64,000 nt of DNA from Eledone cirrhosa. Taxonomy: Eukaryota. The position numbers and the translations under genes were made by a program. The notes under the pieces were generated by a model, which searched no databases, had not been told where the DNA came from, and was given only the letters and a program-made list of their open reading frames with translations. Positions 1 through 10,614 of this stretch are shown piece by piece (position 1 is the first letter of the stretch; each line of letters starts with the position of its first letter). The DNA lies in contig OZ024748.1 of NCBI GenBank assembly GCA_964016885.1, positions 30,876,001-30,940,000 on the forward strand. The letters are read 5' to 3'.

Positions 1-365
1 CAAGTAAAAAACGGGGCACGGAAATAAAAACGGACCCCATAAAAAAACGGGGCACCAAAATAAAAAACGGGGCACCCAAATAAAAAAACGGGGCACCCAA
101 ATAAAAAACGGGGCACCCAAATCAATAACTGACACGCCCATAAAAAATGGGGCACCCAAATAAAGAAACGGGGCACCCAAATAAAAAAAGCGCCCCCCAC
201 ATAAAAAAACGGGGCACCCAAATAAAAATACGGGTCACCCAAATAAAAAGGAGGCACCCAAATAAAAAACGGGGCACCCCCCAAAAAAACGTACACCCCC
301 TTAAAAAAACGGGGCATACAAATAAAAAACGGGGCACCCAAATAAAAAAACGGGGCACCCAAATC
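1..365. repeat. Minisatellite, ~20-22 bp unit AAATAAAAAACGGGGCACCC (about 17 degenerate copies; truncated by the window start)
   Basis: Repeated aaataaaaaa(a)cggggcaccc with variable A-run length, read directly. Confidence 0.95.
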
Positions 366-677
366 AAAAATTATAATATAATATAATATAATATTATATT
401 ATATTAAAAACAAATAACGAAACGAAATTAAATTTCGCTTCGTTTGTAACTCACTTTTGTATGACTGACGCTTAAACAATTAAGTTAAAAATGTACATCT
501 ACATATGCATACTGAAATACTAGTGTGTATATGAATACACACACGTATACATATGTAGGTGTACCAAGTCTTTCACTGGTCGCTTTACAGTGAGCGGCCC
601 AGCTATTCTGTATGTAAACACACAGACAAACCGGTTTTTAGAGTCATACTGGTTTTTCGGGGGAACACCTTCCCCCT

Positions 678-773
678 ATTCTCCAGAAAGCCAGACAAGG
701 AATATTGAACTAGTTTCGTTGTTGTTACAACTCATCAGCAATATTTACCTATCTACCGGCCTTTCTGGAGAAT
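678..773 (-). ncRNA. Type I hammerhead ribozyme, intact core, minimal palindromic stem III
   Basis: The - strand of 701-745 reads AAUAUUG-CUGAUGA-GUUG-UAACAA-CAAC-GAAA-C-UA-G-U-U-CAAUAUU: 7-bp stem I, CUGAUGA box, 4-bp stem II with a 6-nt loop, GAAA box, C-G closed stem III, NUH = GUU, predicted cut between 708 and 707. Stem I extends through bulges to a 13-bp AUUCUCCAGAAAG/CUUUCUGGAGAAU helix. Confidence 0.88.
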
Positions 774-979
774 TGTAAAAGCACATATCGTTATATGCTT
801 TTTCTACGTGTGTGTATTCATATACACACTAGTATTTCAGTATGCATATGTAGATGTACATTTTTAACTTAATTGTTTAAGCGTCAGTCATACAAAAGTG
901 AGTTACAAACGAAGCGAAATTTAATTTCGTTTCGTTATTTGTTTTTATCGTCTCCGCTGAACCGGTGCGTACTCACACT

Positions 980-1016
980 CTATGCAAATTAGTCTGCCCA
1001 CTACTAATTTTCATAG
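980..1016 (+). promoter_or_regulatory. Octamer motif ATGCAAAT (982-989) inside a 14-bp imperfect hairpin
   Basis: ctatgcaaattagt (980-993) pairs with actaattttcatag (1003-1016) with one mismatch. Function is unproven. Confidence 0.3.
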
Positions 1017-1046
1017 AAAAAGCATATAACGATATGTGCTTTTACA

Positions 1047-1142
1047 ATTCTCCAGAAAGGCCGGTAGATAGGTAAATATTGCTGATGAGTTGTAACAACA
1101 ACGAAACTACTTCAATATTCCTTGTCTGGCTTTCTGGAGAAT
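1047..1142 (+). ncRNA. Type I hammerhead ribozyme, second copy with a stem III G>C change (possibly impaired)
   Basis: 1075-1119: aatattg ctgatga gttg taacaa caac gaaa ctac tt caatatt. Identical to the other copy except C at 1110 where the other has G. Confidence 0.8.
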
Positions 1143-1372
1143 AGGGGGAAGGTGTTCCCCCGAAAAACCAGTATGACTCTAAAAACCGGTTTGTCTGTGT
1201 GTTACATACAGAATAGCTGGGCCGCTCACTGTAAAGCGACCAGTGAAAGACTTGGTACACCTACATATGTATACGTGTGTGTATTCATATACACACTAGT
1301 ATTTCAGTATGCATATGTAGATGTACATTTTTAACTTAATTATTATATTATATTATATTATATAATAATATA

Positions 1373-2756: not shown

Positions 2757-5740
2757 TGGGTTAGGGTCAGAGTTAGGGTTAGTGTTAGTGTTAGGGTTAG
2801 GTTTAGGTTTAGGGTTAGGGTCAGGGTTGGGCTTAAAGCTGGGGTTAGAGTTAGGTTTAGGGTTAGGGTTAGGGTTAGGGTTGGGGTTAGGGTTAGGGTT
2901 AGGGTTGGGGTTAGGATTAGGGTTTGGGTTAGTGTTAGGGTGAGGGTTTGGGTTAGGGTTAGAGTTAGGGATAGTGTTATTGTTAGGGTTAGGTTTAAGG
3001 TTAGGGTCAGGTTTTGGGTTAGGGTTAGGGTTGGGGTTGGGGTTGGAGTTGGGGTTAGTGTTGGGGTTGGAGTTAGGGTTAGTGTTTCGGTCAATTTTAG
3101 GCTTGGGGTTTGGGTTAGGGTTAGGGTTAGGGTTAGGATTTGGGTTAGTCTTAGGGTTGGGGTTAGTGATAGGGTTAGGGTTAGGGTTTCGGTTTGTGTT
3201 AGGGTTAGGGTAAGGTTTTAGGATTTGGGTTAGTGTTAGGGTTGGGGTTAGTGATAGTGTTAGGGTTAGGGTTAGGTTTTGGGTTAGGGTTAGGGTTAGG
3301 GTTAGTGTTTTGGTTTGGGTTAGGGTTAGGGCTAGGGTTTTGGTTTGGGTTAGGGTTAGGGTTAGGTTTAGGATTAGGATTTGGTTTGGGGTTAGGGTTA
3401 GGGTTAGGGTTAGGATTTGAGTTAGTGTTATGGTTGGGGTTAGTGATAGGGTTAGTGTTAGGGTTTGGGTTAGTGTTAGGGTTTGGGTTTGTGTTTGGGT
3501 TAGGGTTATGTTTAGGGTTAATGTTTATGTTAGTGTTAGGTTAAGGATTAGGGTTACGGTTAGGGTTAGGTGTAGGTTTAGTATTCGTGTTTGAGTAAGG
3601 GTTAAGTTAGGGTTTGGGTTTGGGTTAGGGGTAGGTTTAGGGTTAGGGTTTGGGTTAGAATTAGGGGTAGGCTTACGGTTACGGTTAGGGTTAGGGTTAG
3701 GGTTGGGGTTAGGGTTAGGGTTAGGGTTAGGGGTAGGGTTACGGTTACGGTTAGGGTTAGGGTTAGGGTTGGGGTTAGGGTTAGGTTTGGGGTTCCAGTT
3801 AAGATTTGGGTTAGTGTTAGTGTTAGGGTTAAAGTTAGGATTAGGGTTAGGGTTAGGTTTGGGGTTGGGGTTGGGGTTGGGGTTGGGTTGGAGTTGGGGT
3901 TAGTGTTGGGGTTGGAGTTAGGGTTAGTGTTACGGTTAGTGTTAGGTTTGGGGTTTGGATTAAGGGTAGGGTTAGGGTTAGGATTTGGGTTAGTGTTAGG
4001 ATAGGGGTTAGGGTTTGGGTTTGTGTTAGGGTTAGGGTTTGGGTTAGGGTTAGCGTTAGGGTTAGGGTTAGGGTTAGGGTTAGGGTAAGGGTTTTGGTTT
4101 GGGTTAGGGTTAGGGTTAGGTTTAGGATTAGGATTTGGTTTGGGGTTAGTGTTAGGGTTAGGGTTAGTGATAGAGTTAAGGTTAGGGTTAGGGTTTGGGT
4201 TAGTGTTAGGGTTGGGGTTAGTGATAGAGTTAAGGCTAGGGTTAGGGTTTTGGTTAGTGTTAGGGTTTGGGTTTGTGTTTGGGTTAGGGTTATGTTTAGG
4301 GTTAATGTTTATGTTAAGGAGTAGGGTTAGGGTTAGGGTTAGGTGTAGGTTTAGTGTTCGTGTTTGAGTGAGGGTTAAGTTAAGGTTTGGGTTTGGGTTA
4401 GGGGTAGGTTTAGGGTTAGGGTTTGGGTTAGGGTTAGGCGTAGGCTTAGGGTTGGTGTGAGGGGTAGGGTTAGGTTTGGGGTTCCGGTTAAGATTTGGGT
4501 TAGTGTTAGTGTTAGGGTTAAAGTTAGGATTAGGGTTAGGGTAAGGTTTGGGGTTGGGGTTGGGGTTGGGGTTGGGGTTGGGGTTGGGTTGGAGTTGGGG
4601 TTAGTGTTGGGGTTGGAGTTAGGGTTAGTGTTACGGTCAGTGTTAGGTTTGGGGTTTGGATTAGGGGTAGGGTTAGGGTTAGGATTTGGGTTAGTGTTAG
4701 GGTAGGGGTTAGGGTTTGGGTTTGTGTTAGGGTTTGGGTTTGGGTTAGGTTTAGGGTTAGGGTTAGGGTTAGCGTTAGGGTTAGGGTTAGGTTTAGGGTT
4801 GGGGTTAAAGCTGGGGTTAGAGTTAGGTTTAGGGTTTGGGTTTGTGTTAGGGTTAGGGTTGGGGTTAGGGTTAGGGTTAGGGTTGGGGTTAGGGTTAGAG
4901 TTAGCGTTAGGTTTGGGGTTAGGGTTAGGTTTGGGGTTAGGGTTAGGTTTGTGTTAGGGTTAGGGTTAGGTTTTGGGTTAAGGTTAGGGTTAAGTTTTGG
5001 GTTAGCGTTAGCGTTAGAGTTAGAGTTAGGGTTTGGGTTAGGGTTTGAGTTAGGTTTAGAGTTACGGTTAGGGTTAGGGTTTGGGTTAGGGTCAGGGTTA
5101 GGGTTAGTGTTAGGTTTAGGGTTAGGGTTTGGATTAGGGTTTGGATTAGGGTTAGGGTAAGGGTTAGGGTAAGGGTTTTGGTTTTGGTTAAGGTTAGGGT
5201 TAGGTTTAGGATTAGGGTCTGGTTTTGGGTTAGGGTTAGGGTTAGGGTTAGGGTTTGGGTTTGGTTTAGTTTTAGGGTTAGGGATAAGGTTTGGGTTTGG
5301 GTTAGGGTTAAGATTAGGGTTTGGGTTAGGGTTAGAGTTAGGGTTAGGGTTAGGTTAGGATTTGGGTTAGTGTTAGGGTTGGGGTTAGTGATAGGTTTAA
5401 GGTTAGGGTTAGGGTTTGGGTTAGTGTTCGGGTTTAGGTTTTGGTTTGGGTTTGGTTATGTTTAGGGTTAATGTTATGTTTAGGATTAGGGTTAGGTTTA
5501 GGGTTTGTGTTAAGGTTTGGGTTTGTGTTTGGGTTAGGCTTAAGTTAGGGTTTGGGTGTGGGTTAGAGTTAGGGTTAGGGTTAGGGTTTGGGTTAGGATT
5601 AGCGTTAGGGTTAGGGTTGGTGTTGAGGTTAGGGTTAGGTTTAGGGTTAAAGTTGGCGTTAGGGTTAGGGTTAGGGATAGGATTTCGGTTTGGGTTAGTA
5701 TTAGGGTTTGAGTATGGGCTTGGGTTAGTGATAGGGTTAA
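2757..5740 (+). repeat. Degenerate interstitial telomeric array (TTAGGG)n with TTGGGG, TTTGGG, TTAGTG, TTAGGT and other variants
   Basis: About 3 kb in 6-bp phase dominated by TTAGGG; perfect runs are short; non-telomeric sequence lies on both sides. Confidence 0.95.
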
Positions 5741-6002: not shown

Positions 6003-6032
6003 ATTTAATTTAATTTAATTTAATTAATTTAA

Positions 6033-6500
6033 TACCCGGAAATAACCGGAAATACACAGAAACACCGGAAATAGCCCACTGCGCACTGCGCATGCGAAAA
6101 GGTTGGACAGCACTGCGCATGCGCTAAGGTTGGACCGTAGTGCGCAGGCGCGAAGGTGTGACCGTAGTACGCATGCGCGAAGGTCGGACCGCCCAACGCA
6201 TGGGCGAAGGATGGACAGCACTGCGCATGCGCTAAGGCTGGGCTATAGTACGCATGCGCGAAAGTCGGACCGTAGTGCGCATGCGCTAAGGTTGGACCGT
6301 ACTGCGCATGCGCAGGGCGGTCCACCCTTCGCGCACTCGAGGTAGGTCCAACCTTCGCGCATGCGCATTACGGTCCATCCTCGAAACCAGTTTCGTTTCG
6401 TTTGAATTTGTAGGTTCCCCGGTTTCGTCTCGTTTCGGTGTTTCAGGTTCCCCGGTTTCGTTTCGTTTGGTTTTTTAGATACACCGGTTTCGTTTCGTTT
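6033..6500. repeat. Module M1: (CCGGAAATA)-like head, 27-bp TGCGCATGCGC repeats with internal inversion, ~31-bp GGTTTCGTTTCG tail repeats
   Basis: ggttggac recurs at 6101 and 6128 (27 bp); orientation flips at actgcgcatgcgcag 6301-6315. Confidence 0.85.
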
Positions 6501-6931
6501 TTTAAATTAAATTAAATTAAATTAAATTAAATTAAATTAAAATGAATTAAAATAATTAATTAATTAATTAATTAATTAATAATATAAAATAAAATAAAAT
6601 AAAATAAATAAACTGAAATGAAATGAAATAAATTTAATTAATTAATTAAATAATTAATTAAGTAATTAATTAATTAATTATTTAATTTAATTTAATATAT
6701 TTTATTATATTTTAATTTATTTTAATTAATTTAATTAATTAATTAATTAATTTAAATTTAATTTAATTAATTAATTAATTGAATTAATTAATTAAATTAA
6801 ATTTAAATTAATTAATTAATTTATTAAATTATTTAAAACAAAATATAATAAATAAAATAAAATAAATAAAATAAAATAATTAATTTATTAATAAAATAAA
6901 ATAAAATAAAATAAAATAAAATAAAATAAAT

Positions 6932-7835
6932 TTAAATTAAATTAAATTAAATTAAATTAAATTAAATTAAATTAAATTAAATTAAATTAAATTAAATTAA
7001 ATTAAATTAAATTAAATTAAATTAAATTAAATTAAATTAAATTAAATTAAATTAAATTAAATTAAATTAAATTAAATTAAATTAAATTAAATTAAATTAA
7101 ATTAAATTAAATTAAATTAAATTAAATTAAATTAAATTAAATTAAATTAAATTAAATTAAATTAAATTAAATTAAATTAAATTAAATTAAATTAAATTAA
7201 ATTAAATTAAATTAAATTAAATTAAATTAAATTAAATTAAATTAAATTAAATTAAATTAAATTAAATTAAATTAAATTAAATTAAATTAAATTAAATTAA
7301 ATTAAATTAAATTAAATTAAATTAAATTAAATTAAATTAAATTAAATTAAATTAAATTAAATTAAATTAAATTAAATTAAATTAAATTAAATTAAATTAA
7401 ATTAAATTAAATTAAATTAAATTAAATTAAATTAAATTAAATTAAATTAAATTAAATTAAATTAAATTAAATTAAATTAAATTAAATTAAATTAAATTAA
7501 ATTAAATTAAATTAAATTAAATTAAATTAAATTAAATTAAATTAAATTAAATTAAATTAAATTAAATTAAATTAAATTAAATTAAATTAAATTAAATTAA
7601 ATTAAATTAAATTAAATTAAATTAAATTAAATTAAATTAAATTAAATTAAATTAAATTAAATTAAATTAAATTAAATTAAATTAAATTAAATTAAATTAA
7701 ATTAAATTAAATTAAATTAAATTAAATTAAATTAAATTAAATTAAATTAAATTAAATTAAATTAAATTAAATTAAATTAAATTAAATTAAATTAAATTAA
7801 ATTAAATTAAATTAAATTAAATTAAATTAAATTAA
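6932..7835. repeat. Perfect (TTAAA)n pentanucleotide tract, ~900 bp (~180 units)
   Basis: Uninterrupted attaa repeats across 15 sequence lines. Confidence 0.97.
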
Positions 7836-8214
7836 TAAATAAATTAATTATTTTATTTAATTTAATTCATTTTTTTATTTTTATTTTAATTTATTTTAAT
7901 TAATTTAATTAATTAATTAAATTAATTAATTAAATTAATTAATTAAATTAATTAATTAATTAAAATTAAAATAATATAAAATAAAATAAAATAAAATAAA
8001 GTAAAATAAAATAAATTTAATTAATTAATTAATTAATTAATCAATTATTTAAATTTTTTTATTTTATTTTTTTTTATTAATAAATAAATAAATTAATTAT
8101 TTTAATTCATTTTAATTTAATTTTATTTAATTTTATTTTATTTTATTTAATCAAATTTACTTTAATTTAATTTAATTTAATTTAATTTAATTTAATTTAA
8201 TTTAATTTAATTTA

Positions 8215-8601
8215 AAAAACGAAACGAAACCGGGGAACCTAAAAAACCCCAGGAAACGAAACCGGGGAATCTAAAGAACCAAACGAAATGAAACCGGGGT
8301 ACCTAAAAAACCGAAAAGAGACGGAACCGGGGAACCTAAAAATCCAAACGAAACGAAACTGCTTTCCAGGTTGGAACGTAGTGCGCATGCGCGAAGGTTG
8401 TACAGCACTGCGCATGCGCAGTACGGTCCAACCTTAGCGCATGGGCACTACGGTCCAACCTTCGCGCATGCGCACTACGGTTCTATCTCGAAACCAGTTT
8501 CGTTTCGTTCGGTTTTTTAGGTTCACCGGTTTAGTCTCATTTCGGTCTTTTAGGTTTCCCGGTTTCGTTTGGTTTTTTAGGTACCCCGGTTTCGTTTCGT
8601 C
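8215..8601. repeat. Module P2: imperfect fold-back (tail-27mers-tail), MITE/foldback-like
   Basis: Left arm aaacgaaacgaaaccggggaacctaaaaaacc mirrors right arm ggttttttaggtaccccggtttcgtttcgt; pivot is the perfect 16-bp palindrome ACTGCGCATGCGCAGT at 8407-8422; flanks are (TTTAA)n and (TTAAA)n. Confidence 0.8.
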
Positions 8602-8643
8602 TTTTAAATTAAATTAAATTAAATTAAATTAAATAAAATTAAA

Positions 8644-8892
8644 TAACCGGATATACCCGGAAATAGCCCACTGCGCACTGCGCATGCGCCAAGGTTGGAC
8701 AGCACTACGCATACGCTAAGGTTGGACCATAGTGAGCATGTGCGAAGGTTGGACCGTAATGCGCATACGCTAAGGTTGGACCTACTGCGCATGGGCAGTG
8801 CTGTGCAAACTTGGCACATGCCCAGTGCCGTCCAACCTTCGTGCATGCGCCGTACGCTCCAACCTTCAAGCATGCGCACTACGGTCCAACGT
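8644..8892. repeat. Module M3: head plus 27-bp repeats, tail absent
   Basis: ccggaaatagcccactgcgcactgcgcatgcg start as in M1; flips near 8784-8799. Confidence 0.82.
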
Positions 8893-9135
8893 TAATTTAA
8901 TTAATTTAATTAATTAATTAATCAATTAAATTAATTAATTAAATTAAATTTAAATTAATTAATTAATTATTTAATTAAATAAAATAAAAATAAAATAAAA
9001 TAAAATAAAATATAATAAAATAAAATAGAATAAAATAAAATAAAATAAAATAAGTAAAATAAAATAAAATAAAATAAAAGAATTAATTAATTAATTAATT
9101 TAATTAATTTAATTTAATTTAATTTAATTTAATTT

Positions 9136-9651
9136 ACTACCCGGAAATAACAGGGAAATACCCGGAAATACCCGGAAACACCCGGAAATATTCCACTGCG
9201 CACTGCGCATGCGCCAAGGTTGGACAGCACTGCGCATGCGCTAAGGTTGGACCGTAGTGCGCATGCGAGAAGGTCGTACCGTACTGCGCATGCGCGAAGA
9301 TCGGACCGCACAGCGCATGCACGAAGGTTGGACAGCACTGCGCACGCGCTAAGGTTGGACTATAGGGCGCATGCGCGAAGGTTGGAATGTAGTGCGCATG
9401 CGCTAAGGTTGGACCGTACTGCGCATGCGAAGTGCTATTCCAAACTTGGCGCATGCGGCGCAGTGCCGCCCAACCTTCGTGCATGCGCGATACGGTCCAA
9501 CCTTCGCGCATGCGCACTACGGTCCAACCTCGAAACCAGTTTCGTGTCATTTGGTTTTTTGAGGTTACCTGGTTTCATCTAGTTTCGGTTTTCTAGGATC
9601 CCTGGTTTCGTTTCGTTTGGTTTTTTAGGTACCCCGGTTTCGTTTCGTTTC
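9136..9651. repeat. Module M4: complete head-27mer-tail copy
   Basis: Same order as M1; flips near 9418-9433; tail starts cctcgaaaccagtttcg. Confidence 0.85.
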
Positions 9652-10095
9652 TTAAATTAAATTAAATTAAATTAAATTAAATTAAATTAAATTAAATTAA
9701 ATTAAATTAAATTAAATTAAATTAAATTAAACTAAATTAAATTAAAATAATTAATTAATTAATTAATATAATGAAATAAAATAACATAAAATAAAATAAA
9801 ATAGAATAAAATAAAATAAAATAAATTTAATTAATGAATTAATTAAATAATTTATTAATTAATAAATTAATAATTTAATTTAATTTAATTTATTTTATTT
9901 TATTTTAATTTATTTTAATTAATTTAATTAATTAATTAATTAATTTAAATTTAATTAAATTAATTAATTAATTAAATTATTTAAAATAAAATAAAATATA
10001 ATAATATATAATAAAATAAATAAAATAAAATAATTAATTAATTAATTAATTAATTAATAAAATAAAATAAAATAAAATAAAATAAAATAAAATAA

Positions 10096-10250
10096 ATTGA
10101 ATTGAATTGAATTGAGTTGAGTTGAGTTGAGTTGAGTTGAGTTGAGTTGAGTTGAGTTGAGTTGAGTTGAGTTGAGTTGAGTTGAGTTGAGTTGAGTTGA
10201 GTTGAGTTGAGTTGAGTTGAGTTGAGTGGAAACGAAACGAAACGAAACGA
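10096..10250. repeat. In-phase pentamer series (ATTGA)4-(GTTGA)22-GTGGA-(AACGA)4
   Basis: Counted directly at 10096-10115, 10116-10225, 10226-10230 and 10231-10250. Confidence 0.92.
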
Positions 10251-10315
10251 AATAAATTTAATTAATTAATTAATTAGTTAATTTAATTAATTAAATTTAA
10301 TTTAATTTAATTTAA

Positions 10316-10614
10316 TACTCGGCAATAACCGGAAATACCCGGAAACACCCGGAAATATTCCACTGCGCACTGCGCATGCGCCAAGGCTGAACAGTACTGC
10401 GCATGCGCTAAGGTTGGACCGTAGTGCGTTGCGCGGAGGTCGGACCGTACTGCGCATGCGCGAAGATCGGACCGCACAGCGCATGCGCGAAGGTTGGACA
10501 GCACTGCGCATGCGCGAATGTCAGACCATAGTGCGCATGCGCTAAGGTTGGACCGTACTGCGCATGCGCACTGCTGTCCAAACTTAGCGCATGCGCACTA
10601 CGGTCCAACCTTAG
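10316..10614. repeat. Module M5: head plus 27-bp repeats, fused directly to the 32-bp satellite
   Basis: Flips at 10557-10572; ends cggtccaaccttag|acttaaacc. Confidence 0.85.

Follow-up and report, generated by a model that had tools for sequence, protein, structure and literature searches.

Metazoan non-LTR retrozymes, described from coral, mussel and axolotl (PMC7229834; bioRxiv 10.64898/2026.07.22.740005), are non-coding tandem units with one type I hammerhead each. They are low in GC, highly self-paired and dispersed as thousands of 1- to n-mers, with long target duplications (>4 bp) and Penelope-like elements (PLEs) in the same genome. Their ribozymes cut as dimers (PMC4209133; PMC7229834), although 8 of 9 Xenopus retrozyme dimers were without cleavage in vitro (bioRxiv 10.64898/2026.07.22.740005). 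The two retrozyme papers name PLEs as the likely mobiliser, disagree on whether circles are copied or arrays amplified locally, and leave the mechanism open. EN+ PLEs (Penelope/Poseidon, Neptune and Naiad) insert as partial tandems with an inverted 5′-truncated copy, have AT-rich, microsatellite or (TA)n targets, and carry a tail of 30–40 bp, often at one end only (PMC8557442, PMC11167929). Their terminal features include a type I hammerhead (PMC8557442, PMC4209133). The tail is bounded by two RT start sites, and both target strands are cut and extended; an Anolis PLE uses uncleaved linear RNA in vitro, with an RT start site that shows no strand bias (PMC11167929).

The insertion reported here, from the octopus Eledone cirrhosa, belongs to a family that has the sequence and genomic properties given above for retrozymes, with target duplications of 11–13 nt, and has a stem III of one pair with a palindromic tetraloop like that of axolotl HHR_Amex1. 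Its unit of 463–470 nt compares with 150–450 nt for metazoan retrozymes in PMC7229834 and 51–972 nt in the 2026 survey (bioRxiv 10.64898/2026.07.22.740005). Inverted arms, two fixed 3′ ends and a tail are absent from the parts of those papers used for this comparison; the present family, for its part, is known from DNA alone. With EN+ PLEs it shares partial tandems, an inverted 5′-truncated arm, a tail at one end, two putative RT start sites and AT-rich or (TA)n targets; it differs from them in having no ORF, a purely tandem structure, a tail of ~70 rather than 30–40 nt and a canonical-type instead of a minimal hammerhead. The Chlamys non-autonomous elements such as MRC1 are likewise non-coding PLE passengers with multicopy head-to-tail insertions but, unlike the unit, are similar to their autonomous partner in the 3′ region and come from a clade without canonical hammerheads (PMC8557442). 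Plant LTR retrozymes have a type III hammerhead in two LTRs and a 4-bp duplication; the present element has a type I hammerhead, tandem units and longer duplications.

Architecture of the insertion

The window is the whole stretch of 64,000 nt that was analysed (contig OZ024748.1, positions 30,876,001 to 30,940,000). The original prediction recognised in it a terminally redundant 467-bp unit at 805–1341, read as 1.15 turns with one hammerhead per turn. The exact match of 805–874 to 1272–1341 at a spacing of 467 is real, as is one type I hammerhead in the turn, with its CTGATGA core at 1082. The six hairpins that had been named are all present in the predicted fold of the monomer, which is strongly self-paired both in linear form (z −9.2 against 100 shuffles) and as a circle (z −12.6 against 40 shuffles). 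However, this description covers just half of a two-armed insertion (Table 1). The repeat finder gave three long inverted pairs in the window and these, taken together with the direct repeat, identify the segment to the left as an inverted arm, 99% identical to the unit, which had been missed along with its own hammerhead. The figure of 467 is a consequence of the 1-nt deletion in the right arm. The 70-nt redundancy is not fixed either, its right end being a fixed family 3′ end and its left end a chance 5′ truncation point. The 3′ ends of both arms enter a 5-nt AT microsatellite. A family that makes a circular RNA of ~467 nt had also been envisaged. For this locus such a product is not supported: because there is one ribozyme per strand, double self-cleavage could not be expected to free a monomer, and the window copy is likely a dead end.

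Table 1. Features of the insertion in window coordinates (unit positions are counted from window 805 on the 468-nt family unit; S and L, proximal and distal family 3′ ends)
Feature	Position	Strand	Remarks
Whole insertion	405..1344	.	two arms joined 5′-to-5′, 3′ ends outward
Left arm	405..806	-	unit 210-468 then 1-143; stops at distal (L) 3′ end; tail included
Right arm	805..1344	+	unit 1-468 (1 nt deleted) then 1-73; stops at proximal (S) 3′ end; tail absent
Inversion junction	805..806	.	arms overlap by 2 nt
Tail (~70 nt) between the two 3′-end sites	405..474	-	internal counterpart 878-947 on +; contains 908-936 hairpin
Type I hammerhead, left arm	685..756	-	family-typical; predicted cut between 708 and 707, after GUU
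Type I hammerhead, right arm	1064..1135	+	predicted cut between 1112 and 1113; stem III palindrome altered by a private C at 1110
Octamer ATGCAAAT	982..989	+	100 nt upstream of ribozyme core; sister family has octamer too
First copy of 70-nt direct repeat	805..874	+	second copy 1272-1341
Left target microsatellite (TATAA)n	372..404	.	
Right target microsatellite (TATTA)n	1341..1372	.	

Ribozyme and conserved octamer

The Rfam model Hammerhead_HH9 matches the plus-arm hammerhead at 1064–1135 (E 3.4e-6) and the minus-arm hammerhead, whose core is at 738, at 685–756 (E 4.6e-8), both below the gathering score; at the gathering threshold, Rfam gives no match in the window. The predicted form has a stem I of 7 bp followed by a UA bulge, a stem II of 5 bp with an AACA loop and a stem III of one pair capped by CUAG, with the predicted cut after GUU at unit 308. 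GUU is generally a weaker cleavage triplet than GUC or GUA. The stem III region is self-complementary, with a duplex energy of −8.0 kcal/mol for the family-type sequence, and the private G-to-C change at 1110 breaks this self-complementarity in the plus arm (+0.3). Position 1110 is G in all the sequencing-run contigs compared, from four runs, and C was not seen there. Among 14 variants drawn from the 468-nt family and its sister families, no core position varies, 6 of the 16 pairs have changed on both sides, and stem pairing reaches 90% against 32–50% in slid controls; this covariation is supportive but is not to be read as a probability, since the variants are related and come from few lineages. 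The ribozyme folded alone is not significant (z −0.9).

Of 115 distinct family contexts, 82 have the octamer 98–100 nt upstream of the core, and 26 of 44 contexts from sister families contain it; many of the others are shortened or variant. It recalls the internal snRNA-type promoter cited for newt satellite 2, also a tandem hammerhead repeat that needs dimers (PMC2220036); metazoan retrozymes, according to PMC7761336, are seemingly without promoters. As a putative promoter element the octamer is only a lead, because the motif also sits in a predicted stem.

A new non-LTR retrozyme family

Judged by its sequence, the element is a non-coding, hammerhead-bearing tandem repeat and represents a non-LTR retrozyme family that is new, the class itself being known. 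The 3.0-Gb source genome yielded 836 candidates for the unit, of which 40 were scored, and the best-scoring family copies are 99% identical. A 39-nt ribozyme stretch has 4,933 exact matches in the genome (0 for the reversed control), a ribozyme variant with a compensatory change in stem II has 2,603, and a looser clan motif has 40,341 (12 for the control). Copies of the family are scattered as 1- to 30+-mers, for the most part in (TA)n, as had been expected from a genome search with the unit. The unit has a GC content of 38%, and its longest ATG frame is 20 codons.

The retrozyme assignment put forward earlier thus holds for a multicopy, dispersed, tandem family that sits in microsatellites and has no shared RT/GIY-YIG body alongside. 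An adjoining ORF of that kind, which was to be looked for, was placed beside no copy in the sampled loci: no shared coding body was found, a PLE protein fragment occurs in the flank of just 3 of 91 locus records, none of them placed as a body, and of 182 flanks none is shared with over 6 others. Judged from DNA, the unit is neither a single-copy sequence without a transcript nor, in the sampled loci, a fixed terminus of a coding Penelope element, the two outcomes named beforehand as counting against a retrozyme. A Penelope remnant had been offered as the alternative to a retrozyme; the unit is a non-coding retrozyme and also carries a Penelope insertion footprint, and it is only the mutual exclusivity of the two that is lost. 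No account of a cephalopod or octopus retrozyme, or of a two-armed retrozyme insertion, was found in the literature searched, and supplementary files or Repbase/Dfam may list one.

Sister families of ~424–500 nt are ~69% identical to the 468-nt family over aligned columns. Their loci (L150 at C1:9968462-9972121, L151–L167, L105, L121 and L122) have GUA as their cleavage triplet and a stem II with a U-U mismatch at its base. The two-arm rule holds in them with a shorter tail (~50–56 nt), and much of the total of 40,341 clan matches comes from these families.

Insertion footprint

The ends of 87 insertions were classified: the 40 that best match the window copy, 27 sampled in sequence along contig C1, 19 from a second subfamily and a single long array. 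Recognisable 3′ ends are present at both sides in 63 of them, in a few cases as very short arms recognised by motif; the remaining 24 have one recognisable end only or extend past the stretch analysed. The two ends are one S (unit 64–77) and one L (unit 137–146) in 62 of these 63 insertions, with one S+S and no L+L (p 7e-18 against 0.5), and in 32 of 33 when the best-match set is left out. Six of six head-to-head insertions of sister families are also S+L. The longer arm can be either one (28 versus 20). In sequencing run X1, contigs pass into (TA)n and end at 879 and at 948, that is, at both 3′-end sites; runs X5 and X6, from other organisms, gave thin partial cover and were left out of the evidence. 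The sole S+S insertion (L078:1469-3185) has a left end that is partly duplicated with its microsatellite, and at L022 (1400–1431 and 3235–3270) the flanks are mutually inverted for ~11 nt beyond (TA)n.

Alternating TA borders both ends in 34 of 44 insertions. Target duplications of 11–13 nt, microhomology included, are seen at the non-microsatellite sites L011, L138 and L140, three of the 44 examined. The head-to-head junctions overlap by microhomology in 30 of 44, and the 5′ ends are scattered, with 4 of 88 near the cut site against ~3.6 expected. In L1, 5′ inversion by twin priming also creates a head-to-head junction with microhomology, both target nicks acting as primers. The present family differs from it in that the putative priming sites are fixed, internal and 70 nt apart and that both arms can exceed the unit length. 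This lopsided two-arm footprint, by its likeness to that of PLEs, makes it likely that a Penelope-like enzyme inserts the element. The family displays a PLE footprint on a pure retrozyme, with the one-sided tail quantified at 62 of 63.

Array growth

Divergence between the two arms of an insertion is 0.53% of positions, compared with 3.4% from one insertion to another (17 insertions), and the own opposite arm is not the nearest in 5 of 17 unbiased insertions. Homogeneity was assessed in 11 arrays that have at least three full units. Young arrays of 6–18 units are homogeneous, each with its own haplotype, and those of L064, L068, L073, M1 and M2 are 3–15 changes apart; L073 has 6 identical units, and M1 is a two-armed array of 18 invariant units, separated by at least 4 changes from every other insertion in the sample. 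In an older 6-unit array there are 18 singletons and no variant common to full units, and the units look born together because the variants are singletons only.

Block-shared variants are found in L071 (period 2), in one arm of M2 (period 3) and in the three longest arrays (31, 33+ and 16+ units). Local duplication therefore also makes or lengthens arrays, since variants recur in blocks, and tandemness alone is no proof of a circle. The long arrays are insertions turning into local satellites, and both routes to an array are visible in this family: birth as homogeneous multimers and, for some, later local expansion. The longest arrays lie at C1:5738327-5752443 (31 units, L148–L149), from C1:81847175 onward (33+, L180–L181) and from C1:69497395 onward (16+, L182). 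No unit order common to the long arrays of one subfamily was seen, which is not decisive. The idea that a dead ribozyme in every second unit leads to dimer circles was considered for L071, where units alternate as ABAB with a core change, and was rejected; the flanking partial unit and tail are without the variants, which indicates local duplication.

Penelope-like elements in the source genome

The source genome holds 10,595 GIY-YIG candidates, with at least six families among the 19 loci compared. Copies of one coding family, P1 (RT plus GIY-YIG), are ~98% alike, end in (TA)n and have a 64-nt tail, and P1 shows S+L ends at L116, L120 and L122; the tails of other PLE families, read by eye, are apparently near 40 nt. 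P1 is a candidate partner by geometry only. None of the five terminal regions of local PLEs that were compared resembles the unit, matches there remaining at shuffle level, and no likeness was found among 50 PLE loci. Matches at L105, L121 and L122 were considered as partner homology and rejected as nested retrozyme copies. Beside 18 sister-family loci, the ORFs are unrelated RT or transposase fragments or are without assignment.

Most top copies of P1 (L175, L176, L178, L179 and the majority of those compared) have a common 775-codon RT-EN frame, and their N-terminal part lies in a second frame that overlaps it. This split corresponds to a conserved frameshift or a short intron and is unusual in that the class has been described as having one ORF; the frame overlap was also checked for motifs, and nothing was found. 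Selenocysteine was rejected, as the recurrent TGA precedes the second reading frame and sits at no cysteine. By eye, P1 (L111:2273-3000, minus strand) and a second family, P2 (L113:7480-7870), have apparent variant hammerheads with U at core position 3.

Mobilisation and rival explanations

The window copy is best described as a two-armed insertion of a young, non-coding, non-LTR retrozyme, for which we consider on balance that a Penelope-like RT/GIY-YIG enzyme was the mobiliser, with a unit-length RNA circle as its probable template. An array with at least two same-strand units would be transcribed, and paired ribozymes, through their 1-bp stem III and palindromic loop, would excise a 468-nt monomer that a host ligase would circularise. 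The footprint suggests that the enzyme nicks both strands of an AT-rich target ~11–13 nt apart and primes one cDNA per nick, at unit ~144 in one case and at unit ~70–75 in the other. The inserted DNA indicates that both cDNAs continue through the ribozyme site, covering between 0.1 and over 10 turns with scattered stops, that they are joined head to head, mostly via short microhomology, and that some arrays later lengthen by local block duplication. The two-arm haplotype, the homogeneous short arrays and the 5′ ends that ignore the cut site favour rolling-circle copying of a circle and, given the rest of this model, there is a good chance that the template would be an RNA circle.

The same twin priming could also act on an uncleaved linear multimeric transcript of a homogeneous array, with long arrays arising by local DNA duplication and the ribozyme being incidental or serving in trimming. 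Block-shared variants in the long arrays agree with such a template, as do the local amplification model (bioRxiv 10.64898/2026.07.22.740005) and the finding that PLE target-primed reverse transcription in vitro does not need ribozyme cleavage (PMC11167929), and the lack of a 5′-end pile-up at the cut site fits it equally. However, locally grown arrays are heterogeneous, while young insertions of 6–18 units are homogeneous with haplotypes of their own; because of this, a linear template would require repeated monomer-to-multimer steps, where a circle gives such arrays directly. The ribozyme has, moreover, been kept with compensatory changes across families 69% identical, and we regard a linear template as unlikely. 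The unit could instead be the pseudo-LTR that 5′ truncation leaves of a coding Penelope-like element: a type I hammerhead, a microsatellite target, an inverted arm and a tail on one side only all belong to the terminal features of PLEs (PMC8557442, PMC4209133), and the sample is a small part of both the family and the GIY-YIG candidates. This explanation is nevertheless very improbable for a unit that has no ORF and closes on itself for up to 30+ turns, whose flanks are each shared with at most 6 others of 182, in which PLE fragments are as rare as reported above and never placed as a body, and beside whose sister families the ORFs are unrelated or unassigned. A local rearrangement of DNA, whether a fold-back or a template switch within satellite, might be suspected, as might an artefact of assembly, because the rest of the window is satellite and telomere-like repeat with inverted blocks and the 805/806 junction is without cover in the sequencing-run contigs compared. 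Yet dozens of unlinked loci across many contigs have this architecture and stop at the same two 3′ ends, by which this explanation is largely refuted, and independent run contigs show both ends; we give it next to no credence.

More tentatively, and as a possibility that we would not yet prefer, each insertion may be one concerted event, in which a dimeric Penelope-like enzyme would prime both nicked strands at two fixed sites of one circular RNA and run a rolling circle from both break ends. The one-tail rule would then reflect the geometry of the complex, the clan, with its ~40,000 ribozyme copies, would still be active, the internal octamer would be a promoter element, and animal retrozyme circles would be PLE passengers, of which these insertions would be a direct genomic readout. 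The combination, in one genome, of a small defined RNA, two mapped putative priming sites and a candidate enzyme family makes PLE second-strand priming and circle use testable.

Sequence context of the window

The insertion is preceded by a 20-nt tandem repeat of ~18 copies (window 1–370) and followed by two SINE-like repeat copies (1418–1579 and 1692–1820) that are common to the flanks of other loci; the flank at ~1418–1560 presumably resembles octopus SINEs. An inverted stretch of a 32-nt satellite occupies 2022–2754, and ~500 copies of a degenerate GGGTTA telomere-type repeat (2758–5739) adjoin 26/32-nt satellite. Blocks of a 27-nt GC-rich satellite and a 32–33-nt repeat occur in both orientations at 6031–10614, with (TTAAA)n between them, and the 32-nt satellite, in ~1,700 copies at 10610–63969, occupies the remainder of the window.
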